A model generated the notes under the pieces. The model did not search any database. It had not been told where the DNA came from and was given only the letters and a program-made list of their open reading frames with translations. Shown here piece after piece: positions 14,069 through 46,453 of a DNA stretch of 64,000 nucleotides (the first letter of the stretch is position 1; every line of letters starts with the position of its first letter). The position numbers were made by a program, and so were the translations under genes. Source of the stretch: Thermodesulfobacteriota bacterium (GTDB taxonomy: Bacteria > Desulfobacterota > WTBG01 > CAIYCZ01 > CAIRTM01); contig JANQGV010000091.1 in assembly GCA_028282925.1 (NCBI GenBank), forward strand, positions 4,748-68,747, written 5' to 3'.

Positions 14069-14482
14069 TCTCGATCCGAGCTATCAATATTTGGAAAATC
14101 CTCTGCACTACAACAACCGTGCCGATTGATTCTCACCAGAATATACGCTGCATACTAAAATTTCTTACAAATCATCAAAATGATTAATCCACTTCTTCCA
14201 TACGATGTAATATCCGTAATATTCACACCCCGTAATCATATAGGACAAAATACCTATATTTTTTAAGTATACAAAACCGCTCATAATATCGTAAAATAAT
14301 TCAAAGCATGTACAAATGATCCGGGTGCGTTCAAACAAAAGAGTTCAACAACGCACACAGGTGCCACTGGCTGTAAAACACCCATGCACCAGCCCGGTAG
14401 ATTCGTGCTGATTCAAAAACACTGCCGTTTCCGTCGGCACATGTCGACAGGCTTCATAAAACACTCTACGATTGTACCGTGT

Positions 14483-15079
14483 ATGGACAGCAACAGGGCC
14501 ACCGAAATAAAACTGCTTAAGGGATGCATTTCCGGCGACAAAGCGCAGTGGGATATCTTCGTTGAAAAATACAACCAGCTGATTTACCATGCTATTTTCA
14601 AAACACTGCGGCAATATACAGGGGGCGGCGATCACACCGAAGATGTCAACGACCTCTTTCAGGAAGTCTTTACCGCACTGTGCGCTGATACGTGCAAAAA
14701 GCTGCGGGCATTCGACCCGGACAAGGGCTGCAGCCTGCCCAGTTGGCTGCGAATGATAACCGTCCGCATTACCATCGATCACCTACGCAAAAGCCGGCCG
14801 GAAACATCGCTGGATGCCGTTACCACCTCTCCCTCTCAAGACGGCATAGAGGGTGAAATGATTGGTGAAGAATCGCGATCAACCCTGAAAAAACTGCTGG
14901 AGAATCTCCCCTCACAGGACAAGCTGTTGATGGAACTTTCCTGCATACAGGAACTCCCCTCGCAGGAAACGGCCAGAATATTAAATATTACAATCGAGAA
15001 TCTATATACACGAAAAAACAGAATCTTAGGAAAATTAAAAAAAATAGCGCTTCGGGAAGAGTCTTTATGTAATAAATAA
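14483..15079 (+). CDS. ECF-type RNA polymerase sigma-70 factor
   Basis: The ORF spans 14384-15079; I place the start at 14483 (MDSNRATEIKLLKGCISGD). Sigma-70 region 2 (YNQLIYHAIFKTL..DVNDLFQEVF) and region 4 helix-turn-helix (LPSQETARILNITIENLYTRKNRILGKLKK). Confidence 0.85.
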   Translation: MDSNRATEIKLLKGCISGDKAQWDIFVEKYNQLIYHAIFKTLRQYTGGGDHTEDVNDLFQEVFTALCADTCKKLRAFDPDKGCSLPSWLRMITVRITIDHLRKSRPETSLDAVTTSPSQDGIEGEMIGEESRSTLKKLLENLPSQDKLLMELSCIQELPSQETARILNITIENLYTRKNRILGKLKKIALREESLCNK

Positions 15080-15153
15080 CGACCTCCTGCGTATATTAAT
15101 ATGAACATACGCTATCGTAGCACCATGCTTTTGGGCTCAAAAAGAGGCACCCT

Positions 15154-16062
15154 ATGAATGATGAACTGTTAAAAAAAGCGTTCAAAGACATGAAGCAGGA
15201 AATGCCCGAGACCGGACAATGCCCGGACGAGATGGATCTTGTCCGCTTTGCAGAGGGAAATACGGACGGTGCTGAAAGGCAAGCCATTGAGGGCCATCTG
15301 GTTGTGTGTCCAAACTGCTGCGAGTATGTTGTATCCTACACAAAAGCCGTAACTATTGCGGAAGAAATGAAACTGCCCGACGTGCCGGAAGACCAGATTC
15401 AGAAAGCGCGCTCTTTGGTAACACAATCGGAACCGGCTGCATACCGTCCTGCCGACAGGGCTTCCTTTTTTGACACGTGCCTGCACTTTTTCAGGTCGCT
15501 GCACTTCCGGCCTATGGCTGCATCCGGGGCTCTGGCGGTTCTTGCCCTGCTCGTAGTCACGTCCGGGCTTTTCATCTCACGTCACAATGCAGACACGACG
15601 AACCAGGGGGTATACGCTCCGCCCGGTATACACCTGCAGGTTCTCGGTAAAACCGCCTTGACCTTACGTAGCGGAGAGCAGCAAAACCGGACAATTGAAA
15701 AAATCATCAATGAGGGCGACACCCTTCAATCCAACGACCACTGCCGCATACAGTTCAGCGTAGAGCACGATGCCTATGTCTATGTTGTCTATTTCGATTC
15801 ATCGGGAAAAACCCATCAATTATTCCCGAACCCGGCAACAACACATCCTCAGAAAATAACCGGCGGCAAAACATACAGCATCCCCCCCGAAAAAGACAGA
15901 TGGTTCAAGCTGGACACTATTCCGGGAACCGAAACCGTTTTTGTCATAGCCGCCCGCCGGCCCATCGACAACCTTGAAAAAACATTTCAGAGCATCAGGC
16001 AATCCGGCATGCCGGAAGAGCCGGTCATCGCGGTAAAAAAACTCAGCTTCACCCACAACTAA
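15154..16062 (+). CDS. Anti-sigma factor, zinc-finger type, with transmembrane segment and C-terminal DUF4384-like domain
   Basis: 302-aa ORF 75 nt downstream of the ECF sigma gene. N-terminal H..C..CC zinc-finger anti-sigma motif (CPDEMDLVRFAEGNTDG...HLVVCPNCCEY). One TM helix (ALAVLALLVVTSGLFI). C-terminal beta-rich domain resembling DUF4384. Confidence 0.7.
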   Translation: MNDELLKKAFKDMKQEMPETGQCPDEMDLVRFAEGNTDGAERQAIEGHLVVCPNCCEYVVSYTKAVTIAEEMKLPDVPEDQIQKARSLVTQSEPAAYRPADRASFFDTCLHFFRSLHFRPMAASGALAVLALLVVTSGLFISRHNADTTNQGVYAPPGIHLQVLGKTALTLRSGEQQNRTIEKIINEGDTLQSNDHCRIQFSVEHDAYVYVVYFDSSGKTHQLFPNPATTHPQKITGGKTYSIPPEKDRWFKLDTIPGTETVFVIAARRPIDNLEKTFQSIRQSGMPEEPVIAVKKLSFTHN

Positions 16063-16699: not shown

Positions 16700-19600
16700 T
16701 CAACGCACCCTGTTTACCGTTTCTCTTTCCACACCTATCTCCTCCATAAAGCCACGGTCTTCAAGTCTGCGCAATACCAGGGCCAGGCCCTTTTTCAATC
16801 CCGGCGATGCTTTTGTCCGCAGTTTTTTCAGCACATGTACCATCCTTTTTTCCTGCATTTTGGTAATTTTTATCGTATCTCCGCATGTAAGGCCCGCCTT
16901 GAGTACTGCATACAATTCAAACATAAGGGTTCTCACCTCAGCCATAAGTTCCGGATGTGCTCCTAAAATGCCGGCGACTTCAGCGCTGTGTACGTAATAC
17001 AGATACACAAGCAGTCGGCCTGTTTCCGTTTTAATGAGCCGCTTGTCCCTGAAAGACCGTAAGGTATCAATTTTTTGTTTATTGGTTCCGGCCGCGCTTT
17101 GTAAAGGACAAACCGAACCCGGCTTCACCATAACCGCAAACTGTTGTCTGGCCTCTTGTCCGTTGCCATCCTGCACCGCAACTTCGATTTCGTGAGATCC
17201 CAGATCCTTGAGTTGCGGGGTCCAGGATATGTACCCCTTTAATACATCAATGGTCATAGTTTCGGGTTTTTGAGTCAACCGGTAAGAAAACATTCCCATT
17301 CCAGCGGTGTTTTTACCAGCCCCTGCTTCAGGCTCGGAATCGTTTGATTTGACTTCAACAGTATACACGTAATGCCTGCCGACAGTGGCCTGATTGTCCG
17401 GAACAGAAATAATAACCGGCGGATCAGAAAAGTTGATCGTTGTTGTAGAAGAGGAGTCCGATGTTGTGGTAGTCGTCTCTACATCAATGCTTGTTGTCGT
17501 TATTGTTGTTTCAATAATTACGGTCGTAGTAACCGTTGAAGTTGGGTCTATTGGTACAGACGTAGTAGATATGTTGCTCTTAGTTGTTGTGGTCGATGTT
17601 GTGGATTTCTTAATGCTTGTTGTCGTTGATGACGTGGTTTCTTTTACACTTGTTGTCGTGGTCGAAGACGACGTAGTCTCCTTAATACTTGTTGTCGTCG
17701 TCGATGACGTGGTTTTCTTAATGCTTGTTGTTGAAGTAGTAGACACCCAGTCCGGATACATACCGATATCGGCATTAAGTATCCTGGAGCGAGTGCCGAT
17801 GTTTAAACGATCATAATACAAATGGTATCCGGCAGCAGCGGCATATAAATTCCAGTCGCCCGGATAAAGATACAGGTCGTATCGACCCTGCATGGCAACT
17901 GCCGCACCACCGCCGTCAGTCATGATTACAGCCCCGTCAATAAGCTGGCTGGACATTTCATCACGCACCGTTCCGCTGACCAGCACAAGAAAATCCGGCC
18001 AATACGGATTATATACCCGTAAGGAGTACCTTGTTGTTGCGGCATCACCATCAAACAGCAGATCATTCCACAAACGAACATAATAGATACCATCCTCCGG
18101 ACACAGCCAGTCAAGATACACCATACCGTCTTCGTCGGGTATCTTTGACCTCCGCATATCAAGGTTTTCGTTGTAAAGCTCTATAACCGGTCGGCTGTTT
18201 TCTCCCAGATCATCTGCAGCTATGCTATAATACTCACCTTCCCGGCCGTAAAACATCACCCAGTCTTCATCCGTAGCAGTGCAGAAGGTATGCTTCTGGG
18301 CCTCCCGGGCATTAACAACAATTCCTCGTGCATCGTCTTTCGTGTTGTCGTCCTCAAATGCATCGGCTGTTGCGTCACTGCACCGCGCCTGGTATTCATG
18401 CAAATATACTTTTGTTTCCAGGGGCAGTGATGTATTATTGTCGTCGTCCCGGGCATACACCGTTATCTTGTAGTCCGTCACGTCATCCGGTTCAAACAAA
18501 CCAACAGCCAGTGCGGTTTCATTATCGTAGTCGAGATCAACTTCCACTAATTCATCATTCTCCCCGGGGAGATATTCGACCGGCGTAATAACCGCCCAGA
18601 CACGCTTAACAATACCGGTGCCGGTAACACTCGCCCATACGGATATCTCACCGGCCTCCGGCGACTCGGCAAAGAGTGCACTGATCATGGGGCTGTCGTC
18701 GGCAAAATTCAACCCGATACCGATCTTGTAGTTTGCCGCCAAAAAACCGTCGGCATATTCATTGGCGATACCGTTACCGTTATCGTCGAGTGACGGGGTC
18801 TGAGTTCGGTATCTCCTACTCAAGCAGCGTGCCGCTTTCCCGGAGTGCTTGTACGCATCATACACGTCTTCACCATTACGGACCTGACTCCAGAAAAAAG
18901 TGGAAGAAGATATAATTCCGCGCTGGCCGTAATAGGCGGTTTCATCGGCAGTGGTGCTGGTAAATACAATGCGCTTTTTGCCTTCCGGCGCCGCAAGGAG
19001 AGGGATGAAGCTTCCTGAGCGATCGGCATCATATATAACGGTGAGCATACCATCCATGTACGCCTGCAATTGGTCCAGCCAGCCGTCAAGCACAGCGGCG
19101 TGCAATATTTCATGATTGTTTATGCGGAATGTCCCGGCTCCGCCCGGCCCGATCATATACAGAACCAGATCATGGGTGGTGTTATGAGCAGCGTTTATGG
19201 TATTTTCAAGAGCGGCAAGGGTTGCCGCACCGTCTACACAATTGTGATTTCCGTAACAATGTATCCCCTCCGGACCGAGGAAAACGATATTCTCATCTGT
19301 ATAGCCCTGGGCCTTCAGGGCACCATAAGCTCGCTGTACGCCCTTTTTTGCATACACATCAGCGCGCCCTCCACCAACAACCACTATTGCCTTCTGAGCC
19401 AGAGGATTTTCAACAATAACCCGGGCCATACCGGCCGTAGAGGTATTGCCCTGCTCATCCATGGCGTAGACCGCTATATCATATGTTCCGGCCATGGTAA
19501 ACTGATCAAAGGTCCCTTCATAGCAAAGGGATTCTGTTACAGTTGACTCACCGGCAACCGAAGAAAGCTCAAAGGACGGCATTTCAACCATGGGGTTGTC

Positions 19601-22600
19601 AGCCTGGTCCTCGCTGAAGCCAGGCGGCACCACCACCGCCCACACACCTGAAAAATGACGCGAATCGGGATCAATGATATCACTCACCCTGATAGTAGCG
19701 CTTGTACCGTTGCTGATACTTTGTTCCTGTGGAAAAACAGTGCCGATTTCAGGGGCATGGCCTGAGATGCTTGTGCCGTAACCGATTTTCAATGATTTGG
19801 ATATTCTTTCCGGTTCTGACCGGGGAACCTGGTCTTCAAAGATGTTTATTATTGCGGAACCGGCTTTTTCAAAAGCCCGGCTGACCGACTCACCGCTGAA
19901 AACAGCACTCCAGAAATAGTTGGAAAATGAGATGGTTCCCTGAGCCAGAAACTTGGCTCGCTGGTTGCTGTCGGCGCTGGTAATAACAGTACGGTTTTCT
20001 TTTTTGAGAGCCTGCAGAAAGCTTCCTGAACTGCAGGCGTCATATACCACCGTCACGGGGCCGTCGAAGCTGTCGAGCCACTCTGCCAACTCCCCGGCCT
20101 TGAGCACTTCGCTTTCGTTCAGGCGCAAGGTTTGCGGTCCGCCATGGTCTATCAGGCATAGCACAAGACTGTCTGCATCCTGAGCCCATACGGTCAAAGC
20201 TTCATGCAGGTTTTTCCGCGTTGCAGCACCATCCACATCGTCAAACTCGCCGTTATTGTCCTGGTCCCAATGGATATCCGGCGATAAGTAGCAGATACGG
20301 TCCTTGCTAAACCCCTGGTACAAGAGAGTCCGATAGGCAAACTTGGCGTTCATGCTGGTGGCTCCCCACAGCGCATCCCCGGCATGGGTGCGCCCGGCAA
20401 CGATTATGGCCTTGCTGTTTGGCATTTGAAGCGGGGAGAAGACCTGGATGCGGTCGTTACCGGTATCGGCTACATAGATCCGGCCGTCTTTCCCGATGCA
20501 CAGGTCGCCGGGATCATTCATCTGACCGGGATTAAGACCCTTTCCGCCAAAAGCTTCGACAAACTGTCCCGCAGCCGTAAATTTCTGGATACGGTGATTA
20601 CCGCTGTCGGCCACATAGACATACACGTGGCCGAACTCGACTGCTGCAGCTATGCCACGGGGAGCGTTGAATTCACCTTGGCCATCGCCATAGGTTCCCC
20701 ACTGGCTTACATAGGTTCCATCCGGCTGAAACTTCTGGATACGATGATTACCGGTATCGGCCACATAGACATATCCATCGTGGTCAACAGCAATTCCGTG
20801 AGGATTTTCAAAGGCACCATCGCCTGTTCCGACCTCGCCCCATTCTGCTACTTGAGCATCATAATTACTTGTAAATTTAATAATATAGTGATTACCGCTA
20901 TCAACAACATATACATGCCCATTATCATCACAGGCTATGCCGCTCGGTTTGTAAAAATTATGAAAGGTGGTGTTTTTCGAATAGGAATGCCGCGATAAAC
21001 CGTATTCACCGAAACGGGTATACACCGAAACCTGATTATTACCGGTACCGGCAACATAGATTCTATTGCCCGAACCGACAGCAATGCCCTGGGGAGATCT
21101 GGCAGCATTACCGGACCACTCTGATATAAATTCACCATCTGCACTGAATTTTTGAATACGGTGATTATCCGTATCGGCTACATAGATATATCCCCGCTTG
21201 TCAACGGCAATACTTTCCGGCGCTATAAATTCACCACTTTGTTCTCCCCGGTTTGACATGGCGGAAACATGCGTAAGGTCGGCACCGCCATCATGAAACT
21301 TCTGAATACGGTTGTTCCATACATCCGTCAAATAAACAGTGCCTTGAACATTGGCCGCTATACCCGCAGGACTGCACAATTGATCATCGTCAGTGCCGCA
21401 TGTGCCTTTGACTGCAACAAATGCAATAGCTGATCCATCATCACGAAGCTTAACAATTCGATGATTTTCACTGTCGGAGACATATATCACGCCGGCCTCT
21501 CCTGCTGCTATACCAAGCGGAGAATCAAGCTCCCCGGCAGCAGACCCTTCACTTCCCCATGCCGTTAGAAACGTGCCGTTATCGTTGAATTTCTGGATGC
21601 GATGATTATACCGATCGGCCACATAGATGTGCCCGTTTCTATCTGATGCAATACCCCGCGGCAGATCAAACTCACCCTCCCCACTTCCATATGTTCCCCA
21701 TAGTGCAAGCAATTGACCATCGTTGTTAAACTTTACTATGCGGTCATTAAAGGTATCTGCCACATAGATATTGCCCCCTTGGTCAATCGTCACCCCTTGC
21801 GGATAGCTCAGTGAGTCATCACCGGTTATCTGCTCACAGATCTCCAACATAAAAGCCCCATTGGAGTCGAATTTCTGAATCCGGTGATTGTCCGTATCGA
21901 CAACAAACACATTACCATATAGATCCGTTGCTATACCGGTCGGATAGGCAAACTGGCCGTTCCCCGATCCCGGGCTGCCCCAAGAGGCAATAAACTTGCC
22001 ACCTGAGGTAAACTTTTGTATACGGTGCTTGCCGGTATCGGCCACATACAGATTGCCCCAGGGATCTACCGCCACATCGGCCGGGTGTGTGAAATACCAG
22101 GGATTCTTTAACGACGGCCACAAGCCGTTGCATACATATTTTGATACAAGGGCCTTATCCGCACGTATGTCTGACAGCTCAACACCGTCTTTTTCCAAAC
22201 GGGATATCTCTTCGTCATGAGTTCCGCCGAACGGGCTGAGGCCCGACAGCCCGTTTCCACCATCGCGTATAGCCTGGAGCGTTGGCCCGTCTCCGGAGCT
22301 GCCTGTAGTTGCACCTGGAAAACCATCCCCACCGGAAACACCGATTGCCTGTTCAGAAAACGCCCCGCCACCGGAATACTCGTCCGCCCCCATGTCGACT
22401 TCAGCAGAACCACTAGTATCTCCATCTATAATCCTGGGGTCACCGTCAATATCCATATCAGAAAGGGTAATACCCGTAGAACGTCCGGCATCAATACATG
22501 GTGAAGTCGAACGCAGATGCAAGTCACCATAGTCATCATCATCCGTACCCCACTCACCATCCGGACCCGCATCAGGATTGCGGACAAAGAGGGGGTCTGT

Positions 22601-23830
22601 ACGGATATTGCCGTTGGAGCCGGCATAGCCCTCCGCGACGACATCACTGTATGTGATACTAAAGGATGAACCAGAAGCACCTATGGATGTTAATGTACCC
22701 GCTGCTGCATTGCTCCATACAATACAATTAATAATACTATCTGATGATAGATGGAAATATATTTCGCTACCTCTCATTGCGCTATTATCGGAAATGGTAC
22801 AATTGGTTATGGTGGAATCGGAGGTATGATTCCTTATTCCCCCACCGTTTTTAGCGCTGTTACCCAAAAAAATGCAATTGGTAATATTGGGCGCGGAGGC
22901 AACGTTATCTATTCCACCGCCCACGTTAGCGGTGTTACCCAAGAAACTGCAATGAGTGACTGTGGGGGCATGAAAATTGTTATAGATTCCACCGCCTTGT
23001 GTTAAAGCATTGTTGCCTGAAAAAATACAGTCATTAATGTTGGGCGAAGATTTAAAATTACTTATCCCGCCACCCAAATCAGCTATATTACCCAAGAAGC
23101 TGCAACTGGTGAGAGTAGATGAGGACTCATTATTATATATTCCACCGCCTCGATACCCGGCATAGTTTTCAGTGAACGTGCAATTGTCAATGACAGTATT
23201 ACTGTAACTGGCATACAATGCGCCGCCTGACGTACCGGAAAAATTGTTTTCGAAAATACAGTTTATAATAACCAGGTCCCCATAGCGCACATAAAGCGCC
23301 CCGCCATCGCCGCCGACACTATTTTCTATAAACCTGCAATTGTTGAATGTGGGAGACGCATAGGCAATATAGCCCGCTCCGCCTTCTTCATCGAGTGTAC
23401 AGCCGTCATCAGCATTGCGGATGGTGAATCCGTCGATAGTGGCATTATCGGTTATATACAGCAAATTATAAACCGCATACTGACCGTCCAGCACGGTTTC
23501 ATAGAGGGCAACGTCCCGGTCCTCCCAATCCGGATAGGTAACATCAGCCGGAAAGCCGCCATAGATATGCACAGCCTTGTCAACCGCGATACTGGCCGAC
23601 AGGGGGTACCGGCCCTCCTTGACCAGTATCACGTCATCGGCTTCAGCCGCATCTATTGCATCTTGAAGGTTTTTAAAGGCATCGGCCCAGGCAAGACCAT
23701 ACCGGCTGGATGAATCCACACCGCCGTCTACGTACCAGGTAGTGGCGTGCAAATATGCACCAGGCAAACACAGATAGAATATAAAAGTTGTAATAAAAAA
23801 ACATAATGGGATTTTTACCGATTTCATCAC
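16700..23830 (-). CDS. Giant secreted/surface multidomain protein, paralog 1 (2376 aa). Domain order: signal peptide, Pmp-like GGxI/FxxN parallel beta-helix, 2x NHL beta-propeller, active peptidase C13 (legumain-like), inactive C13-like domain, PPC domain, CarboxypepD_reg-like, Thr-rich linker, Ig-like domain, conserved C-terminal domain.
   Basis: Single uninterrupted ORF with an N-terminal signal peptide. GGGIYNN/FxGN repeats as in polymorphic membrane protein repeats. The beta-helix ends with the cap motif DPGPDGEWGTDDDDYGDLHLRSTSPCIDAG. About 13 NHL repeats (YVADTGNHRIQKF). Legumain-like His/Cys dyad (LIDHGGPQ ... VYDACSSGSF). Second copy degenerate (MIGPGGAG ... IYDADRSGSF). PPC motif DEDWVMF. 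Confidence 0.9.
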   Translation of the reverse strand: MMKSVKIPLCFFITTFIFYLCLPGAYLHATTWYVDGGVDSSSRYGLAWADAFKNLQDAIDAAEADDVILVKEGRYPLSASIAVDKAVHIYGGFPADVTYPDWEDRDVALYETVLDGQYAVYNLLYITDNATIDGFTIRNADDGCTLDEEGGAGYIAYASPTFNNCRFIENSVGGDGGALYVRYGDLVIINCIFENNFSGTSGGALYASYSNTVIDNCTFTENYAGYRGGGIYNNESSSTLTSCSFLGNIADLGGGISNFKSSPNINDCIFSGNNALTQGGGIYNNFHAPTVTHCSFLGNTANVGGGIDNVASAPNITNCIFLGNSAKNGGGIRNHTSDSTITNCTISDNSAMRGSEIYFHLSSDSIINCIVWSNAAAGTLTSIGASGSSFSITYSDVVAEGYAGSNGNIRTDPLFVRNPDAGPDGEWGTDDDDYGDLHLRSTSPCIDAGRSTGITLSDMDIDGDPRIIDGDTSGSAEVDMGADEYSGGGAFSEQAIGVSGGDGFPGATTGSSGDGPTLQAIRDGGNGLSGLSPFGGTHDEEISRLEKDGVELSDIRADKALVSKYVCNGLWPSLKNPWYFTHPADVAVDPWGNLYVADTGKHRIQKFTSGGKFIASWGSPGSGNGQFAYPTGIATDLYGNVFVVDTDNHRIQKFDSNGAFMLEICEQITGDDSLSYPQGVTIDQGGNIYVADTFNDRIVKFNNDGQLLALWGTYGSGEGEFDLPRGIASDRNGHIYVADRYNHRIQKFNDNGTFLTAWGSEGSAAGELDSPLGIAAGEAGVIYVSDSENHRIVKLRDDGSAIAFVAVKGTCGTDDDQLCSPAGIAANVQGTVYLTDVWNNRIQKFHDGGADLTHVSAMSNRGEQSGEFIAPESIAVDKRGYIYVADTDNHRIQKFSADGEFISEWSGNAARSPQGIAVGSGNRIYVAGTGNNQVSVYTRFGEYGLSRHSYSKNTTFHNFYKPSGIACDDNGHVYVVDSGNHYIIKFTSNYDAQVAEWGEVGTGDGAFENPHGIAVDHDGYVYVADTGNHRIQKFQPDGTYVSQWGTYGDGQGEFNAPRGIAAAVEFGHVYVYVADSGNHRIQKFTAAGQFVEAFGGKGLNPGQMNDPGDLCIGKDGRIYVADTGNDRIQVFSPLQMPNSKAIIVAGRTHAGDALWGATSMNAKFAYRTLLYQGFSKDRICYLSPDIHWDQDNNGEFDDVDGAATRKNLHEALTVWAQDADSLVLCLIDHGGPQTLRLNESEVLKAGELAEWLDSFDGPVTVVYDACSSGSFLQALKKENRTVITSADSNQRAKFLAQGTISFSNYFWSAVFSGESVSRAFEKAGSAIINIFEDQVPRSEPERISKSLKIGYGTSISGHAPEIGTVFPQEQSISNGTSATIRVSDIIDPDSRHFSGVWAVVVPPGFSEDQADNPMVEMPSFELSSVAGESTVTESLCYEGTFDQFTMAGTYDIAVYAMDEQGNTSTAGMARVIVENPLAQKAIVVVGGGRADVYAKKGVQRAYGALKAQGYTDENIVFLGPEGIHCYGNHNCVDGAATLAALENTINAAHNTTHDLVLYMIGPGGAGTFRINNHEILHAAVLDGWLDQLQAYMDGMLTVIYDADRSGSFIPLLAAPEGKKRIVFTSTTADETAYYGQRGIISSSTFFWSQVRNGEDVYDAYKHSGKAARCLSRRYRTQTPSLDDNGNGIANEYADGFLAANYKIGIGLNFADDSPMISALFAESPEAGEISVWASVTGTGIVKRVWAVITPVEYLPGENDELVEVDLDYDNETALAVGLFEPDDVTDYKITVYARDDDNNTSLPLETKVYLHEYQARCSDATADAFEDDNTKDDARGIVVNAREAQKHTFCTATDEDWVMFYGREGEYYSIAADDLGENSRPVIELYNENLDMRRSKIPDEDGMVYLDWLCPEDGIYYVRLWNDLLFDGDAATTRYSLRVYNPYWPDFLVLVSGTVRDEMSSQLIDGAVIMTDGGGAAVAMQGRYDLYLYPGDWNLYAAAAGYHLYYDRLNIGTRSRILNADIGMYPDWVSTTSTTSIKKTTSSTTTTSIKETTSSSTTTTSVKETTSSTTTSIKKSTTSTTTTKSNISTTSVPIDPTSTVTTTVIIETTITTTSIDVETTTTTSDSSSTTTINFSDPPVIISVPDNQATVGRHYVYTVEVKSNDSEPEAGAGKNTAGMGMFSYRLTQKPETMTIDVLKGYISWTPQLKDLGSHEIEVAVQDGNGQEARQQFAVMVKPGSVCPLQSAAGTNKQKIDTLRSFRDKRLIKTETGRLLVYLYYVHSAEVAGILGAHPELMAEVRTLMFELYAVLKAGLTCGDTIKITKMQEKRMVHVLKKLRTKASPGLKKGLALVLRRLEDRGFMEEIGVERETVNRVR

Positions 23831-24095: not shown

Positions 24096-27000
24096 CTAGC
24101 GGTGTAACCGTCCCTGCTCCACGCCAATTTCTCTCAGAAAGCCGGCATCTTCAAGCCTCCGCAATACCAGGGCCAGGCTCTTTTTCAGCCCCGGGGACGC
24201 CTTATGCCGGATATTTTTCAAAACCGTGCGCACTTTTCTGCGGGCATCTCTTGAAAGGCTTCCAGGTTCATTATACACAACAATCTTTTTAAGTTCCGGC
24301 AGCAGTTCCCCTGCTATTTCACGTACCAATGCCATAAGACTGGGCTGCTGCGCCAGGATTCCATATATCTCAGGGCCATTGGCATAGTAAAGGTACAGAA
24401 GCGACCGCCCGGCAGCACTCCGGTACAGGCGGATGTCTCGGTAGCGCCTCAGCAGATCCAGGTTTTGCCTGTTATTGTTCAGCACCTGCGTGAGCACACA
24501 GCTCAGCGTCACCCGCACCGTAAACTCCTGGCTGACCCTTTGGCCCAGATTGTCTACGGCACACACTATTATCCTGTGATTGCCCAGTTGATCCAACCCA
24601 GGCGTCCAGGTGATGATACCGGTTTCCTTATCGATTGTCATTCCAGCGGGTGCCGATTCCAGTGCACATGTTACAACAGCACCACTGCGTACTTCCACAG
24701 TATAGCTATACTGTTCTCCTGCAAAGGCCGTCACCCGCGGTGATGATATTATCTCGACCGGCGGTGGTGGCGTAACCGTGATTGTAGTAGTTGTTGTTGA
24801 TGTTAAAGTTGATTCTATTGGTACCGTCGTTGTGGTGGTAGTAGCCGGCGGCGTAGAAGGCGATGAATCAATACTGGTGGTTGTAGAAGTATATGTACCT
24901 AACGGCTGCATGCTGATATCCTTCTGCATCACCATACTGCCCGTGACGACATTCAGGTGTTTCCGGCACCACTGGTACCCAGCCGCCTGCACCTCCAGGC
25001 TCCACTGGCCAGGGTAATGATACATTTCATAACGGCCACCTGTTGATATTGCTGCCCCTCCACCGTCGGTGGTAATGACGGCACCGTCTATGGGCTGCTG
25101 CGTTGTACTGTCTTTTACTTCCCCGCTCATCAGCACCAGGAAATCAGGCCAGTACGGATTGTAGATCCGCAGGCGATATCTGGTTGTATTCCCCTGCCCA
25201 TCCTCCTCATGCAGCAGGTAATTCCACAGCCGTACATAATAGATACCATCCTGCGGGCACAGCCAGTCAAGATACACTGCACCGCCCTCTTCCGGCACCT
25301 TCGAACGCTGCATATTGAGCTGTTCATTGTACAGCTCGATAACCGGCAGGCTGTTTACACCCAGATCATCCGTTACAATGCTGTAATATTCTCCTTCACG
25401 CCCGTAGAACTTCACCCAGTCTTCATCCGTAGCAGTACAAAAGTTGTGCTCCTGCGCCTGGCGGTCATTTACTAGTATTGCCCTTGCATGGTCTTTGTTG
25501 TTATCGTCTTCATATCCATCCGCACTATTCACTCTGCACAGTCCCTGCCCCTCACTCAGGTACACTTTAGTTTCAAAGGGCCTGGAAGTGTTGTTATCAT
25601 TATCTTGGGCATATACGGTTATCTTGTAATCCTGTGAGCCCGCTGCGTCAAAAAGGCCCGTGGCCGTTTCAGTTTCATTGTCATACGCAAGATCCATCTC
25701 CACCGGAAACTCACTCCCACCCGGGCAATGGTCTGCCGGCGTAATTACTGCCCAAATTCTTCTGATTTCTATGGTTCCGGTCACACCGGCTCTTATGGAC
25801 ACCTGATTGTTTTCTGCAGTTTCTGCAAAAACTGATCCGATCATGGGACCGTCGTCGGCAAAGTTCCACCCGATACCGATCTTGTAGTTCATAGCCAGCA
25901 GACCATCGGCATACTCATTTGCAACGGCATTGCCGTTATCATTGAGGCACGGAGTTTGGCTTCGGCAGCTTTTGTTTAAACAGCCGGCTGCTTTTTTAGC
26001 ATAAGTGAATGCATCATATACCTTTTCGCCGTTATAGATCTGACTCCAGAAAAAGGTCGAAAACGAGATAATCCCCTGGGTGCCGTAATACACCGTTTCA
26101 TCTGCAGCGGTGCTGGTAATTACGATCCGTTTCTTGTTTTCAGGGGGTGTGAGCCGCGGGATAAAGCTGCCGGAAAAATCGGCATCATACACAACGGTCA
26201 ACATCCCGTTCATGGTTGTCTGCAACTGGTCGAGCCACTGATCAAGCACAGAAGCCTGTAAAATTTCACTATCCTTTATATGGAACGATTCTGTATCGCC
26301 CTTTCCGATCATATAGAGCACCAGATCGTGGGTATTACTGTGGTCGGCAGTAAGTGTAGATTCAAGTACAGCAAGCGTTGCAGACTCGTCTACACAGGAG
26401 CCTGATCCATTGCAGCGCATTCCCTCGGGACCTAAAAATTCAATTGCATCATCGTCATACCCTTGTGTCTTCAGGGCACGATAGGCAAGCTCGGCTCCAT
26501 GCTTCACAAACAGATCTCCCGGCTCACCACCGGCTACAATAATCGCTTTCTGAGTCAACAGGTTATTCACGGTAACCGTTCCCATGCTGGGCGCCGAAGT
26601 ATTACCCTGGTCATCCATGGCATAGACCGCCACATCATATGCTCCGTCTATAGTAAACCCTTTAAAGGTGCCTTCATAGCATTTACCGGCATATCCGGAA
26701 CAGTCTGCTTCCTGCAACTCAAAGGACGGCAGTTCAACCATGGGATTGTCAATCGAGCCTTCATTGAACCCCGGGGGCAACACCACCGCCCATACCCCTG
26801 ACAGCGTACCGCTGTCAGGATCTGTGATCCCATTGGCCCGTATAGTGGCACTGGTACCACTTGTAATGGACTGGATGGCCGGAGACAGCTCTGCAATCTC
26901 AGGGGCAAGGCCTGATATGCTGGTTCCGTAACCAATGGTCAGGTTATCTGATATATTTACAGGTTCCGACATAGGGGTCTGGTCACCAAAGGTACTCACT

Positions 27001-30000
27001 ATTGCAGATCCGGCCTTTTCCATGGCCTGTTTTACCGGGGTACCGTTAAAGATATGATTCCAGAAATAATTTGAAAACGAAATAATACCCCGTCCCAGAA
27101 ACTTGGCCCGCTGATTTACATCGGTGCTGGTAATAACAGTACGGTTCTCTTTTTTCAATGCTTGCAAAAAACTTCCCGAACTGCAGGCATCATACACTAT
27201 CGTTGCAGGACCCGTAAAAACATCCAGCCACTGGCCAAACACTCCGGCTTCCAGCACTTCCTTATCGTTTAAGCGAAAGGTTTGGGGGCCGCCATGGTCT
27301 ATCAGGCACACAACAAGGCTGTCGGCATCCCGAGCCCACTCAGTCAAAGCGTTATACAGGTTCTCCATGGTGGGCTCACCGTCTACATCGTCAAACTCAC
27401 CGTTATTGTCCTGATCCCACAGGGTATCAGGCGACAAATAATAGATTGTCTCTTTTGTAAAGCCCTGGTACAGAAGCGCCCGATAGGCAAACTTGGCGTT
27501 CATACTGGTAGCATTCCACAGAGCATCTCCAGGGTGGGTACGGCCGGCAACGATTATGGCCTTACTGTTGGGCATCTGCAGGGGACTGAAAACCTGAATA
27601 CGGTTATTGCCGGTATCAGCCACATATACCCGTCCGTCTCTGGCGATACTCACGCCCCCGGGATCTTTAAACTGGCCTGGATTGGTACCTTTACTGCCCA
27701 GTGACTGAATAAAAGCACCATCAGCGGTAAACTTCTGGAGGCGGTGATTGCCGCTATCGGCCACATACACTACAATCCGTCCGGACTCATTGTCAGTAGT
27801 TATACCTCGGGGAGCGTTAAGCTCTCCTTCGCTGCTTCCATAGCCGCCCCACTGTCCAAGATAAATACCATTGGATGTAAACTTCTGGACACGATGATTA
27901 TTTGTGTCAGCTACATACACATTACCCTCCGCATCTATTGCTATGCCGTGAGGATTTCGGAATCTACCGGCCTCAATGCCATGGCCTCCCCATACTGTTT
28001 CAGTGTCATTAAAACCCGGGGTAAATTTCACTACATAGTGATTACCTCTATCGACAACATATATGTTATCCAGGCAATCAAAAGCTACGCCATAGGGCTC
28101 ATAAAAAAATTTATCCACATCGTCTTTAATATATTTATTTGCATACGTACGGTACTTGCAGTCACCAGTATATTTGGTGACCTGATTATAATCGGCACTC
28201 GCAGCATAAACATCACCTTGCGTGTCAGTAGCAATTCCTTGAACAAATCGGGTATCATACCTGGACCACTCGAACAAAAACACTCCGTCTATACCTAATT
28301 TCTGTATCCGGTGGTTTTCTGTATCAGCTACATACACATAACCCTGTTCATCAACCGTAACGCTTTCAGGCGATATAAACTCTCCGCCGCGCTCCCCCCG
28401 GTTTGAAAGAGTATAAACATAATTAAAATCAGCACCGGCATCACGAAACTTCTGAATGCGGTTGTTCCACACATCTGCCACATAGACATTCCCGCCGGCA
28501 TCTACCGCTATGCCGGAAGGAGTGCACAGTGAATCATGATCGGAACCGCATGAGCCCTTTACTGAGACAGGAGCAAAACCTGAGTTGTCATCACTGAGTT
28601 TAACGAGCCGATGATTCTCACTGTCGGTTACATATATCGCGTTGTTTGCGCCAACTGCAATGCCAAGGGGCGAGTCAAGCTGCGAGCCCCCATCTCCTTC
28701 ACTTCCCCACGTCATTAGAAACGTACCATCGTCGCGAAATTTTTGAATACGGTGATTATACCGGTCGGCCACATAGATGTGTCCATTTCTATCTGATGCG
28801 ATACCCCGGGGCAGATCAAACTCACCAGTGCCATCACCGTACGCACCCCAGCTAGCAATCAATTGACCACCTGGAGCAAACTTCACAATCCGGTCGTTAA
28901 AGGTATCTGCAACATAAATATTGCCCCATTGGTCAATCGTAATACCTTGAGGATAGCTTAAAGTGTCGGTATCTGTTATCTGCTCATAAATCTCCAGCAT
29001 GAAATTCCCATTGGCATCGAACTTTTGTATCCGATGGTTGTCGGTATCGGCTACGTACACATTACCATACAGGTCCGTTGCTATGCCGGTTGGATAGGCA
29101 AACTGCCCGTGTCCTGCCCCCGGGCTTCCCCAGGCTGCAATAAAATTTCCACCGGAAGAAAACTTCTGAATACAGTGTCTGCCGGTATCGGCCACATACA
29201 GATTACCCCAGGGGTCCACCGCCGCACCGGACGGATGCTCAAAATACCAGGGATTCTTTAATGATGGCCAGATACTCCTGCAGGTATACTGAAATACTGG
29301 GGCAACATGCAAAGCCGATTCCGATACAGTCTGCTCTTCTGCTTCTTCAAGAACACTGTTTTCATCTGCAGTGCCGTCCGTCAAAGGTTTACTGGCACTG
29401 CCAGTGCCACCTGACACATCCCCTAACCTAGGATCTGAGCTACTTTCCGCAATAACCGGAAGCAGGAGTGCACTGTCAGATTCATACAGATTCAGTGTCA
29501 CTGATGAAAGCGTTTGATCATGAGTAAATTCATCCGCCCCAATATCAACAAGAGCCTCACCGTTATCATCCCCATCCATGATCCTTTGGTCACCCTCAAT
29601 ATCAGTCGATAAAAGATGTGCAGCGGCATTGTTTCCGGCATCAATACAGGGAGAAGAAGCACTCAAATGCAAATCGCCGTAGTCATCATCAGCAGTACCC
29701 CACTCTTCATCAGGCCCGGGATCCGGGTTGCGAATAAACAATGGTTCTTTACGGATGTTACCATTACCATCCGCACTGCCGTCCGGTTTGCCAAATCCGC
29801 TTTGATCAATATTGCAATATGACAATGGAACATAATCAGAATAAGAGTAAAGCTGGGGGCCATTGTCTGCCGATGCATTACCAAGAAGGGCATTCCCCCA
29901 CATAAGACAATTAGAAAGAATATCATCGGTGCAGTTGTCACTCATAATTCCACCGCCGTAACCTGCCTTATTGCCGGACAGAGTGCAGTTAGTCATGGTG

Positions 30001-31568
30001 ATAGCAGAATCATTGCCGTATAGGCCACCACCGATATAAGCCTTATTGCCTGAAAAAACAGAGTTGACCACCACCGGGGCAGATGAATAAGTACTCATAC
30101 CACCACCAAAGGTTACGGCCAGGTTACCCAGAAAGGCGCAGTTACTAATTTTGGGGAAAGAATTACTCGTATTTAAAATCCCGCCTGCCTGGTGAGCGCT
30201 ATTGTTATTAATGATACAATCGGTTATTTCTGGTGAGGACTTTGCATTTAAAATTCCGCCGGCACTTTCATCGGCCTTATTACCCGAAAAAATTGAGCCG
30301 GTTATAATAGTATCGGATTCTTTGTTGTATATTCCACCACCCTTTACAACAGCACTATTGCCGGAAAAAATCGTATTTCTTATTATAGGGGAAGAATATT
30401 GTATATTTAATGCGCCACCATATTCAGCAATGTTGTCAACAAAACTGCATTTAGTAATCGTTGGAGAGGAATAATGGATAAAAACCGCTCCACCATATTT
30501 GTCGGTATCATTTTCCGCAAAGGTACAATTGTCAAATACCGGAAAGCTTTCCTTTAAATAGATAGCTGCACCGGAACCTTTGGCATAATTATTTTCAAAA
30601 GTGCAGTTACTGATGAGCGCATTGCTCTTATTGAGATAAACAGCTCCACCATACAAATCGACACTGTTGCCCGAAAAAGTACAATTGATGATAGTGGGAT
30701 TGGAATTATAATTACATATGCCGGCGCCGTTCTCTACCGCTTGATTAATCAAAAAGGTACAATTGTCAAAACTGGAAAAAGAGTCACTGGTATTTAAAAT
30801 CCCGCCTGCCTGATGAGCGCTATTATTATAAAAAATACAGTCGTTTATTTCTGGCGAGGACTTTGCGTTTAAAATTCCACCGGCGCTGACATCGGCACTA
30901 TTACCTGAAAAAATTGAGCCGGATATAGTGGGATTCGATTCTTTGTTGCATATTCCACCACCCTTAACAGCAGCGCTGTTGCCTGAAAAAACAGTATTTC
31001 TTATGGAGGGAGAGGAGTTTCGATTATAAATTCCACTGCCATATTCAGCCGTATTGTCGATAAAATTGCATTTAGTGATAGTCGGAGAGGAGTAATGGTT
31101 AAAAATCCCTCCACCATATTTGGCAGTATCATTTTTCGTAAAGGTACAATTGTCAATTACCGGAAAGCTTTCCTTTAAATAGATAGCTGCACCGGAACCT
31201 TCAGCAAAATTATTATCAAAATAGCAGTCGCTGATGAGCGTATTACTATTATTGAGATAAACAGCTCCACCATATAAACCAACACTGTTGTCTGTAAAAG
31301 TGCAATTGATGATGACTGGAGAAGCATAAACGATAAAGGCCCCCCCACCATCTGCTTCCTCCAAACATCCATCATCGGCATTGCGAATAGTAAGCCCGTC
31401 TACGGTGGCATTGTCGGTTATGTACAGTAAATTATAGACCGAATACTGACCGTCCAGTACAGTTTCATACAGCCCCGCATCCCGGTCCTCCCACTCCGGG
31501 TAGTCAACATCTGCCGGAAATCCACCATAGATATGCACAACCTTATCGATTTCGACACTGCCCGACAA
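24096..31568 (-). CDS. Giant secreted/surface multidomain protein, paralog 2, main reading frame (2490 aa) with the same architecture as paralog 1. Its N-terminus is supplied by the frameshifted fragment at 31418-31789.
   Basis: Homologous to paralogs 1 and 3 along the whole length. It contains an internal tandem duplication of about 205 aa of Pmp-like repeats. C13 dyad LIDHGGPQ/VYDACSSGSF, then degenerate MIGKGD/VYDADFSGSF. Confidence 0.85.
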   Translation of the reverse strand: MSGSVEIDKVVHIYGGFPADVDYPEWEDRDAGLYETVLDGQYSVYNLLYITDNATVDGLTIRNADDGCLEEADGGGAFIVYASPVIINCTFTDNSVGLYGGAVYLNNSNTLISDCYFDNNFAEGSGAAIYLKESFPVIDNCTFTKNDTAKYGGGIFNHYSSPTITKCNFIDNTAEYGSGIYNRNSSPSIRNTVFSGNSAAVKGGGICNKESNPTISGSIFSGNSADVSAGGILNAKSSPEINDCIFYNNSAHQAGGILNTSDSFSSFDNCTFLINQAVENGAGICNYNSNPTIINCTFSGNSVDLYGGAVYLNKSNALISNCTFENNYAKGSGAAIYLKESFPVFDNCTFAENDTDKYGGAVFIHYSSPTITKCSFVDNIAEYGGALNIQYSSPIIRNTIFSGNSAVVKGGGIYNKESDTIITGSIFSGNKADESAGGILNAKSSPEITDCIINNNSAHQAGGILNTSNSFPKISNCAFLGNLAVTFGGGMSTYSSAPVVVNSVFSGNKAYIGGGLYGNDSAITMTNCTLSGNKAGYGGGIMSDNCTDDILSNCLMWGNALLGNASADNGPQLYSYSDYVPLSYCNIDQSGFGKPDGSADGNGNIRKEPLFIRNPDPGPDEEWGTADDDYGDLHLSASSPCIDAGNNAAAHLLSTDIEGDQRIMDGDDNGEALVDIGADEFTHDQTLSSVTLNLYESDSALLLPVIAESSSDPRLGDVSGGTGSASKPLTDGTADENSVLEEAEEQTVSESALHVAPVFQYTCRSIWPSLKNPWYFEHPSGAAVDPWGNLYVADTGRHCIQKFSSGGNFIAAWGSPGAGHGQFAYPTGIATDLYGNVYVADTDNHRIQKFDANGNFMLEIYEQITDTDTLSYPQGITIDQWGNIYVADTFNDRIVKFAPGGQLIASWGAYGDGTGEFDLPRGIASDRNGHIYVADRYNHRIQKFRDDGTFLMTWGSEGDGGSQLDSPLGIAVGANNAIYVTDSENHRLVKLSDDNSGFAPVSVKGSCGSDHDSLCTPSGIAVDAGGNVYVADVWNNRIQKFRDAGADFNYVYTLSNRGERGGEFISPESVTVDEQGYVYVADTENHRIQKLGIDGVFLFEWSRYDTRFVQGIATDTQGDVYAASADYNQVTKYTGDCKYRTYANKYIKDDVDKFFYEPYGVAFDCLDNIYVVDRGNHYVVKFTPGFNDTETVWGGHGIEAGRFRNPHGIAIDAEGNVYVADTNNHRVQKFTSNGIYLGQWGGYGSSEGELNAPRGITTDNESGRIVVYVADSGNHRLQKFTADGAFIQSLGSKGTNPGQFKDPGGVSIARDGRVYVADTGNNRIQVFSPLQMPNSKAIIVAGRTHPGDALWNATSMNAKFAYRALLYQGFTKETIYYLSPDTLWDQDNNGEFDDVDGEPTMENLYNALTEWARDADSLVVCLIDHGGPQTFRLNDKEVLEAGVFGQWLDVFTGPATIVYDACSSGSFLQALKKENRTVITSTDVNQRAKFLGRGIISFSNYFWNHIFNGTPVKQAMEKAGSAIVSTFGDQTPMSEPVNISDNLTIGYGTSISGLAPEIAELSPAIQSITSGTSATIRANGITDPDSGTLSGVWAVVLPPGFNEGSIDNPMVELPSFELQEADCSGYAGKCYEGTFKGFTIDGAYDVAVYAMDDQGNTSAPSMGTVTVNNLLTQKAIIVAGGEPGDLFVKHGAELAYRALKTQGYDDDAIEFLGPEGMRCNGSGSCVDESATLAVLESTLTADHSNTHDLVLYMIGKGDTESFHIKDSEILQASVLDQWLDQLQTTMNGMLTVVYDADFSGSFIPRLTPPENKKRIVITSTAADETVYYGTQGIISFSTFFWSQIYNGEKVYDAFTYAKKAAGCLNKSCRSQTPCLNDNGNAVANEYADGLLAMNYKIGIGWNFADDGPMIGSVFAETAENNQVSIRAGVTGTIEIRRIWAVITPADHCPGGSEFPVEMDLAYDNETETATGLFDAAGSQDYKITVYAQDNDNNTSRPFETKVYLSEGQGLCRVNSADGYEDDNNKDHARAILVNDRQAQEHNFCTATDEDWVKFYGREGEYYSIVTDDLGVNSLPVIELYNEQLNMQRSKVPEEGGAVYLDWLCPQDGIYYVRLWNYLLHEEDGQGNTTRYRLRIYNPYWPDFLVLMSGEVKDSTTQQPIDGAVITTDGGGAAISTGGRYEMYHYPGQWSLEVQAAGYQWCRKHLNVVTGSMVMQKDISMQPLGTYTSTTTSIDSSPSTPPATTTTTTVPIESTLTSTTTTTITVTPPPPVEIISSPRVTAFAGEQYSYTVEVRSGAVVTCALESAPAGMTIDKETGIITWTPGLDQLGNHRIIVCAVDNLGQRVSQEFTVRVTLSCVLTQVLNNNRQNLDLLRRYRDIRLYRSAAGRSLLYLYYANGPEIYGILAQQPSLMALVREIAGELLPELKKIVVYNEPGSLSRDARRKVRTVLKNIRHKASPGLKKSLALVLRRLEDAGFLREIGVEQGRLHR

Positions 31569-31789
31569 AGGATACCGCCCCTCTTTGACAAAATTACGTC
31601 ATCGTCCACAGCTGCATCGATAGCCTCTTGCAAACTTTTAAAGGCATCTGCCCAGGTAAGGCCGTAGTTGCCGAAGGAATCAATACCTCCGTCAACATAC
31701 CACGTGGCAGCATGAAGGTTTGATAAAGACAGTGCTACAAGCACCAAAAAAAACAATAATAGTCTTGTTTTTTTCACATTGCCCCTCAA
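31418..31789 (-). pseudogene. Frameshifted N-terminal fragment (signal peptide plus conserved N-domain) of giant paralog 2. A 1-nt deletion near 31589-31590 separates it from the main frame; this is either a pseudogene, phase variation or a sequencing error.
   Basis: The fragment reads MRGNVKKTRLLLFFLVLVALSLSNLHAATWYVDGGIDS...DDDVILSKRGG and then diverges. Restoring one C (GAC to GACC) gives DDDVILVKEGRYPLSGSVEIDKVVHIYGGFP, continuous with the main ORF and matching paralogs 1 and 3. Confidence 0.6.
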
Positions 31790-39720: not shown

Positions 39721-39999
39721 GATGCCCCTCTGGGTTCGGCAAAATGACCAGAAAGCCGGCATCTGCCCGGAAATGCATACCATTTGATCGAGCTTCAACC
39801 AAATGGGTATATGCTACTGATGACGGTTTCTTTTCTGTTTACACTCGTAATGTGGCTACCTGGTAAACAAATATTACAATACCGATTGCAGCCGATAAAA
39901 TATAAAATCGCATACTAACAAAAATTACGAAAAAAACAATACTGAAAGTATTTACTCAGTCTAAAATGAGTAAAAATACGGATAAACACTGGTCGTCTG

Positions 40000-41349: not shown

Positions 41350-41360
41350 AGAACCGTCAG

Positions 41361-43355: not shown

Positions 43356-43381
43356 ATGTTGGTATCAAACAATGCAGCACG

Positions 43382-46081: not shown

Positions 46082-46453
46082 ATAGTTAGCTGTGTCGTTT
46101 AAAAGCACAAACAGTGCCCCGGTTTCGCCTCCCGCTCCTTCCCATCAAGATCACCGTAGAGGAATGGAACTACCGGAAAACGATAACCTGCTGATATTGC
46201 AACACTTTCAAGGAATCCCCTGATGAAAATAACAAAAGGCGCCGTGGTCGTCAAGCGGTGCCCCTTGAGTGTACAAGTATACCCTTTTGTTCAGATCAGG
46301 TGTAGCTGTTTTATTCCTCCCTTAATAATACGTAAACGTTCGAGATTTCTTACATAAAATCCTTATGACCTCAATCCCGGCACAATTGGAAAAGATAGGC
46401 GCTCTCCGAGAGTCTTCTTGACGTTCACTGGGGCAAAACATACTATTAACGGT

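Follow-up and report, generated by a model that had tools for sequence, protein, structure and literature searches.

Three giant proteins and their C-terminal domains

The window analysed here is a stretch of 64,000 nucleotides from a contig of a Thermodesulfobacteriota bacterium (JANQGV010000091.1, assembly GCA_028282925.1), and all positions below are positions in it. Three giant proteins are encoded in consecutive tandem ORFs, all on the minus strand, and domain searches show the same order of parts in each of them. Read from the N-terminus of giant 1, this order is a signal peptide, a beta-helix/PMP/choice-of-anchor Q region, NHL propellers, Peptidase_C13-like domains, CarboxypepD_reg, a linker, an Ig-like domain and the C-terminal domain (CTD) that is the subject of this work. 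In giant 2, a one-base frameshift near 31585 splits an exon-like ORF with the signal peptide from the main ORF. The features are as follows.

16700-23830, minus strand: giant 1, an ORF of 2376 aa (translation and domain search)
16700-16702, minus strand: stop codon of giant 1, directly after its CTD
16703-17110, minus strand: CTD of giant 1, 136 aa, CPLQSAAG...VNRVR (translation, NF041770 match and AlphaFold model)
17111-17422, minus strand: Ig-like (He_PIG-type) domain of giant 1, directly before the CTD (alignment to the paralogs)
17423-17749, minus strand: Thr/Ser-rich low-complexity linker of giant 1, 109 aa (translation)
24096-31789, minus strand: giant 2, with the main ORF at 24096-31568 (2490 aa) and the signal-peptide ORF at 31418-31789
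24099-24500, minus strand: CTD of giant 2, 134 aa, its CFI-box-matching part at 24315-24473
32032-39798, minus strand: giant 3, an ORF of 2588 aa with a probable start at M27, coordinate 39720
32035-32439, minus strand: CTD of giant 3, 135 aa, its CFI-box-matching part at 32242-32415

The Ig-like domain of giant 1 thus lies between the CTD and the Thr/Ser-rich linker upstream of it; the He_PIG matches themselves were found in paralogs 2 and 3. A fourth giant (P0208), a close relative outside the window, also keeps the CTD.

The first-pass annotation of this DNA had described a homologous domain at the C-termini of the three giants, and this is borne out: each ORF ends in a tail of 134-136 aa, and the homologous unit reaches to within 2-6 residues of the stop in all three. 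Aligned with no gaps of note, the tails have 57 invariant positions, with invariant stretches that include LRxxRDxRL, GRxLxYLYY and ASPGLKKxLALVLRRLEDxGF. Two of the three motifs first given for the domain, LR.(F/Y)RD.RL....G..L.YLYY and ASPGLKK(G/S)LALVLRRLED.GF, occur in all three tails, but the third, EIGVE, occurs in paralogs 1 and 2 only and is DIGIK in paralog 3.

The same annotation held the tail to be far more strongly conserved between paralogs than the neighbouring linker and Ig-like domain, which the alignments contradict. For the pairs 1/2, 1/3 and 2/3, identities are 46, 44 and 72% in the CTD, 44, 39 and 71% in the Ig domain, and 43, 48 and 74% in the linker when only its alignable positions are counted, with 60, 60 and 74% over the whole proteins. 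Among all 136-residue segments of the giants, the CTD ranks at the 10th to 30th percentile. It is among the less conserved parts of these paralogs, and its only edge in conservation over its neighbours is that it has almost no indels.

A long form of the CFI-box-CTERM family

The tail is not an unrecognised module: its first half is NF041770, CFI-box-CTERM, a curated NCBIfam model of 69 positions with a cut-off of 40 bits. The model aligns to the first half of each tail, from model positions 11 or 12 to positions between 64 and 68. Against this cut-off, the tails alone score 47.3, 37.6 and 39.9 bits in paralogs 1, 2 and 3, respectively, and the whole proteins score 41.5, 32.3 and 34.7 bits. 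Only paralog 1 thus exceeds the cut-off. Since the E-values of these matches range from 1e-8 to 1e-12, with 1e-9 to 1e-12 for the tails, homology to NF041770 is not in doubt. The matched core, LRxFRD...G...LYYxHxxE...P, takes up the first 60 or so residues of the tail, and 66 of 67 sampled long-form relatives match the model at E ≤ 0.01. In giant 1, the two parts of the CTD are:

16919-17083, minus strand: part aligned to CFI-box-CTERM, model positions 12-66 of 69; NKQKIDTLRSFRD...LYYVHSAE...
16703-16918, minus strand: extension past the NF041770 match, about 70 aa, with three helices, two short strands and the ASPGLKKGLALVLRRLED motif

In the giants, 60-70 further residues follow the end of the NF041770 match, with an ASPxLK motif, three helices and a mini-sheet, and this extension is conserved across the long-form family while being covered by neither NF041770 nor Pfam; the tails match nothing in Pfam even at E ≤ 10. 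At the other end, the CFI box proper (model positions 1-10) is unmatched in all three tails, whose alignments begin at position 11 or 12. At its place, the window tails read CPLQSAAG or CVLTQVLN, with the Cys alone kept. The consensus of the box is presumably CFIATAAYGS; we take the Cys-Phe-Ile motif from the family name and from one short relative (P0204) that has a literal CFIATA...SPPIA. This relative is one of the short forms, of about 75 residues and ending just after the ...LPLI helix, that were recovered in the same searches; in two more (P0197 and P0193), the protein stops some 75 aa past the Cys.

With a profile built from the three tails, a search of 1.84 billion representative proteins, clustered at 50% identity, gave 1,830 protein clusters at E ≤ 1e-3, of which 177 reach E ≤ 1e-10, the best matches of unrelated proteins going down to E = 1e-27. 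Nearly all of the best 150 matches span profile positions 3 to 132 or so and thus extend over the complete unit, beyond the NF041770 part. In about 147 of these 150, the domain is terminal, the median distance to the C-terminus being 1 residue, in host proteins that are 99-3,590 aa long. Other searches were less productive: a word-indexed search for homologs that used just the tail of paralog 1 returned no relatives, a tail-alignment search of metagenome contigs returned no match, and the same kind of search in genome contigs returned only an archaeal HTH protein sharing KASPGLKKAI, which was rejected as spurious.

The full unit is thus spanned by relatives, and, given also the homology to NF041770, the window tails belong to the long-form branch of the CFI-box-CTERM family. 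Judged by its sequence, then, the tail is a long-form variant of a catalogued but uncharacterised family. It resembles CFI-box-CTERM in being strictly C-terminal, on secreted multidomain proteins, and in following a Cys and often a Thr-rich linker; it differs in that the model has 69 positions, whereas the folded unit in the giants has 134-136 aa. A literature search found no publication mentioning CFI-box or the motif strings of the tail.

The hosts are varied. They carry cohesin, PKD, CarboxypepD_reg, Lcl_C, beta-propellers, MopE, TSP3, CBM96, CARDB, FG-GAP and Ig-like domains, all of them extracytoplasmic types, and their N-termini are signal-peptide-like. The tail is therefore, as first proposed, a discrete C-terminal module reused on otherwise unrelated secreted proteins (1,830 clusters, with about 147 of the best 150 matches terminal), and the wide occurrence in cytoplasmic proteins that would speak against such a module was not seen among these partner types. 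Members named by organism come from MAGs of Thermodesulfobacteriota, Desulfobacterota or Deltaproteobacteria, with one labelled 'bacterium' only. In one MAG (GCA_042567335.1), CTD proteins are encoded on two or more contigs, and the tail is kept in tandem arrays of paralogs, such as the three giants in the window and five PKD proteins in a row at another locus (L013). About 90% of members have a Cys 16-18 residues before LRxFRD, mostly as Cys-Pro, and in about 42% at least 40% of the 25 residues upstream of this Cys are Thr or Ser. A large cohesin subfamily has LWPLLYDKMWG in place of the boundary Cys. A link to anammox S-layers was considered and dropped: four members match NF052345, and in the one that was traced (P0047) the match falls outside the tail, in a CarboxypepD_reg-like domain upstream of it; papers on Kuenenia held nothing useful on such a link.

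Predicted fold and comparison with known C-terminal systems

An AlphaFold model from a 47-sequence alignment (pLDDT 91, pTM 0.82) confirms the helical character predicted for the tail. It has eight helices and, at residues 83-85 and 130-132, two short strands, which tie the extension together. The prediction is a confident one, with the tail as a globular unit of about 130 aa that is compact, all-helical and able to fold by itself. Foldseek found no relative of this fold in the PDB (best E 2.7, TM 0.30), and a sequence profile against PDB chains found designed (de novo) helical bundles only. The idea that the last 50 residues form a winged helix was rejected, as the TrmB and Crp HTH matches are insignificant (E = 0.14 and 1.5). 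The tails have no transmembrane segment, their maximum 19-residue Kyte-Doolittle hydropathy being 0.91-1.34. They are basic in the three giants, as annotated (net charge +11 to +14, pI 10-10.5), but basic charge is no trait of the family, in which pI values run from 4.6 to 10.3; this speaks against a simple electrostatic anchor, and one to anionic polymers was rejected on that ground.

The first reading had also set the tail apart from PEP-CTERM, LPXTG, the T9SS CTD and dockerins, and the lack of matches to these models, the lack of a transmembrane segment and the all-alpha fold agree with it. The T9SS CTD (TIGR04183/PF18962) is comparable in that it, too, is folded and ends varied secreted proteins, and in homologs of the beta-helix/choice-of-anchor Q module of the giants it stands where the giants have their CTD. 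In contrast to the tail of the giants, all-alpha and of about 130 aa, it is a beta-sandwich of about 70-100 aa, and the hosts of the tail are Thermodesulfobacteriota, not Bacteroidota. No TIGR04183/PF18962 match was found in the giants by a search that detected true examples elsewhere, and no T9SS core genes were seen.

The exosortase signals, PEP-CTERM and IPTL-CTERM, are likewise C-terminal modules that follow a Thr-rich spacer and occur on several paralogs per genome, and IPTL-CTERM alternates with the CTD among adjacent cohesin paralogs. Unlike these signals and GlyGly-CTERM, the CTD has no motif followed by a transmembrane helix and a basic cluster, and is predicted to be globular and not membrane-spanning; models of PEP-CTERM, IPTL-CTERM and GlyGly-CTERM find no match in the giants, where hydropathy stays under the transmembrane level. 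The paired Ca-binding repeats of dockerins (PF00404) have no match on the tails at E ≤ 10, while another protein, at a cohesin locus (L002), does end in a genuine dockerin-like tail. Finally, SLH-anchored cellulosomal scaffoldins share with a large subfamily of CTD proteins the order of signal peptide, cohesin, Thr/Pro-rich linker and C-terminal helical module, and in both a dockerin-bearing protein accompanies the cohesin, here in the same operon as the CTD cohesin. The CTD has no sequence similarity to SLH (no Pfam match at E ≤ 10) and its hosts are diderm; the analogy is a functional one only.

A proposed role in localisation, at the stalk base

Two comparisons bear on the role of the domain, the first being that of the cohesin loci L002-L005. 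Their gene order begins with a 1,781-aa protein with a dockerin-like tail, upstream of the cohesins. It continues with three cohesins: one that lacks any extension at its C-terminus, one in which a Thr-rich linker leads to the CTD, and one ending in VPTLSEWG, a transmembrane helix and RRRR (IPTL-CTERM-type), and it closes with an exosortase-family gene. By analogy, this layout is that of an anchoring scaffoldin. Among proteins that share only the beta-helix/choice-of-anchor Q module with the giants, the three checked (P0310, P0250 and P0324) have T9SS type A tails, and other proteins with the giants' N-terminal module carry dockerins. Thus, the domain does sit, as had been suspected, at the place of known sorting or anchor signals, in paralogs (the cohesins) as well as in homologs (the T9SS tails).

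Because a signal peptide, a binding domain, a Thr-rich stalk and a terminal module together make up a surface-display architecture, we read the CTD as a localisation module; going by these arrangements of domains and genes, it probably fixes the position of surface-type proteins on the cell. With moderate confidence, we propose that it lies at the base of the stalk and is a retained docking domain for a conserved partner in the envelope. The giants would be exported through their N-terminal Sec signal peptides, and the CTD would then hold or deliver the C-terminal end of the protein at this partner, with the Thr-rich linker and the adhesin-like and enzymatic domains pointing outward. The near-invariant Cys at the boundary between linker and domain may join in attachment or processing. 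Since the cohesin subfamily has LWP in its place, Cys chemistry is not universal, and a universal Cys-based attachment is ruled out. We infer docking or anchoring, as opposed to export tagging, as well as the existence of a partner and the part played by the Cys. A soluble domain exported to the periplasm of a diderm still needs a route to the outer membrane, which goes beyond what the docking explanation specifies.

The main rival is an export or sorting tag that is cleaved in T9SS style. Here, machinery in the outer membrane would recognise the folded CTD in the periplasm, a peptidase would cleave at the linker/Cys boundary, and the new C-terminus would possibly be attached covalently. Candidates for this machinery lie in the window, upstream of the giants:

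40000-41349, minus strand: FadL-family outer membrane protein (OMP), same strand as the giants
41361-43355, minus strand: TPR/Glucodextran_B/FlgO/CsgG-like protein of 664 aa, a FlgO/CsgG-like lipoprotein
43382-46108, minus strand: TPR-CHAT protein (clan CD), same strand as the giants

The CHAT, lipoprotein and OMP genes and those of the three giants follow one another on one strand. The OMP has sub-threshold NCBIfam matches to BamG and PorV/PorQ, the T9SS shows that a folded C-terminal domain can be a secretion signal, homologous N-terminal modules carry T9SS tails elsewhere, and a conserved Cys stands exactly at the domain boundary. Against this, the OMP scores are far under their cut-offs (63.9 bits against 250 for BamG, 55.9 against 90 for PorV/PorQ), and the tail is predicted to be all-alpha, not a beta-sandwich. 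The first-pass annotation had suggested the TPR-CHAT, lipoprotein and FadL-like OMP genes as a possible partner operon, which comparison did not support: nine other CTD loci, a set drawn apart from P0208 (the one protein outside the window that is closely related to the giants), lack this operon in flanks of up to 10 kb, with no CHAT or FadL-like gene there. The link between CTD and operon is therefore one of adjacency in the window only. As sorting machineries are often encoded elsewhere in a genome, such a link is still conceivable. In addition, a cohesin without the CTD lies in the same operon as a cohesin with it, which suggests that the tail is not needed for export, and anchoring is thereby mildly favoured over a requirement in export. 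We regard the tag as possible, if rather unlikely.

It is also conceivable that the CTD is purely structural, a helical cap that multimerises or stabilises stalked proteins, or an intramolecular folding aid, in either case carrying no targeting information. The compact, self-contained helical fold of the AlphaFold model would suit such a role, no partner gene was found, and the conserved polar residues (R, R, D, Y, Y and E) could make a buried network and not a binding site. We find this doubtful: the very varied and unrelated N-terminal architectures, with the strictly terminal place of the domain, form the pattern of a targeting module, and some paralogs and homologs carry true sorting signals where others carry the CTD.

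It is tempting to draw a complete pathway from the window, with the long CFI-box domain as the recognition and attachment signal of a T9SS-like route for surface sorting in Thermodesulfobacteriota. The FadL/PorV-like barrel (40000-41349) would receive the folded CTD, the FlgO/CsgG-like lipoprotein (41361-43355) would form or gate a pore, and the TPR-CHAT protease (43382-46108) would serve as signal peptidase or sortase, which would cut at the boundary Cys and fix the protein to the cell surface. We consider this very improbable. Lastly, the idea that the shared tail is a mere trace of recent tandem duplication with no distinct function, which would fit a CTD conserved no better than its neighbouring segments among the three paralogs, is refuted by the family-wide distribution, as some 1,800 unrelated protein clusters that differ in their N-terminal domains end in this domain, which also fits a curated family model.

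Little is known of the means by which diderms outside Bacteroidota display very large adhesin-like proteins. As long as neither a partner nor a processing event is demonstrated, the CTD counts as a clearly bounded domain with no assigned function, and not as a new pathway. It combines a confidently predicted fold with no solved relative and a place that is exactly that of anchors and sorting signals. Defining the full unit of 130 residues allows a better family model than the one of 69 positions, and offers a handle for phylogenetic profiling toward the partner and for reporter fusions. The domain marks a large set of surface-type proteins in relatives of the sulfate reducers, comprising at least 1,830 clusters at 50% identity. 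This set includes cohesin–dockerin systems of the kind that has been proposed to mediate cell–cell contact in syntrophic consortia (PMC10553843).

Neighbours of the giant array

The three giants, tandem minus-strand paralogs that each end in the C-terminal domain (CTD) of about 130 residues related to CFI-box-CTERM (NF041770), lie among the following genes of the window:

14384-16062, plus: ECF sigma factor and anti-sigma factor (zf-HC2 + DUF4384)
40000-46108, minus: in series, a TPR-CHAT protein (908 aa), a TPR/Glucodextran_B/FlgO/CsgG-like protein (664 aa) and a FadL-family OMP
47321-49651, plus: large ORF, 776 aa
50975-55629, plus: corrinoid methyltransferase cluster, preceded by a TetR regulator
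61727-63520, minus: large ORF, 597 aa

The TPR-CHAT, FlgO/CsgG-like and OMP genes stand immediately upstream of the giants. They resemble a T9SS-like outer-membrane set, which comprises a barrel, a lipoprotein and a clan-CD protease, and the FadL-family protein gave sub-threshold matches to BamG and PorV/PorQ. At nine other loci, no such TPR-CHAT/lipoprotein/OMP set adjoins the CTD genes. The two large ORFs have no Pfam or NCBIfam matches, and the corrinoid cluster, which encodes a B12-binding protein, an MttB-family methyltransferase, an MtrH-like methyltransferase and a RACo-type reductive activase, appears to have no relation to the giants' CTD.

The CTD beyond the window

Loci outside the window:

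L002 1642-10564, and likewise L003-L005: non-cellulosomal cohesin-dockerin operon, sediment metagenomes
L013 1-16113: tandem array of five PKD-repeat proteins, each about 900-1050 aa long, Deltaproteobacteria MAG GCA_024230655.1
L015 2114-2728: archaeal MAG protein, HTH-like sequence

The long-form CTD ends all five of the PKD-repeat proteins. The operon at L002 encodes an Lcl_C/TSP3/propeller protein of 1,781 aa with a dockerin-like tail, an exosortase-family gene product and three cohesin paralogs whose C-termini differ, one having no C-terminal extension, another the CFI-box long form and the third an IPTL-CTERM-type end. The archaeal protein contains KASPGLKKAI, 10 residues identical to the CTD motif; outside this segment it does not match the domain, and the pattern-scan match is therefore due to chance.

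Architecture of the giants and their possible regulation

Each giant contains two Peptidase_C13 (legumain-like) regions, at residues ~1150-1330 and ~1480-1700 of giant 1 and likewise in paralogs 2 and 3. The first retains the His-Gly ... Ala-Cys pattern (LIDHGGP ... VVYDACSSGSF). In the second, both residues are gone (MIGPGGA ... VIYDADRSGSF), and for this reason its sequence is probably that of an inactive duplicate. The paralogs also differ in the length of the Thr/Ser linker, which in giant 1 (17423-17749) has some 60 residues more than in paralogs 2 and 3 and includes a loosely repeated motif, about 10 residues long (TTSSTTTTSIKE...).

Giant 2 carries a frameshift close to its 5′ end, at about 31585 on the minus strand, which leaves a separate ORF:

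31418-31789, minus: signal peptide and first ~68 residues of giant 2, MRGNVKKTRLLLFF...DDDVILSKRG

At attttgtcaaagagggg this short ORF leaves the frame; paralogs 1 and 3 have ...ILVKEGRYPL there. The frameshift is a deletion of one base; therefore either giant 2 is a pseudogene or the deletion is an assembly error.

The ECF sigma/anti-sigma pair, encoded on the strand opposite to giant 1 and convergent with it, lies just past the 3′ end of that gene and possibly regulates the giant-gene array.
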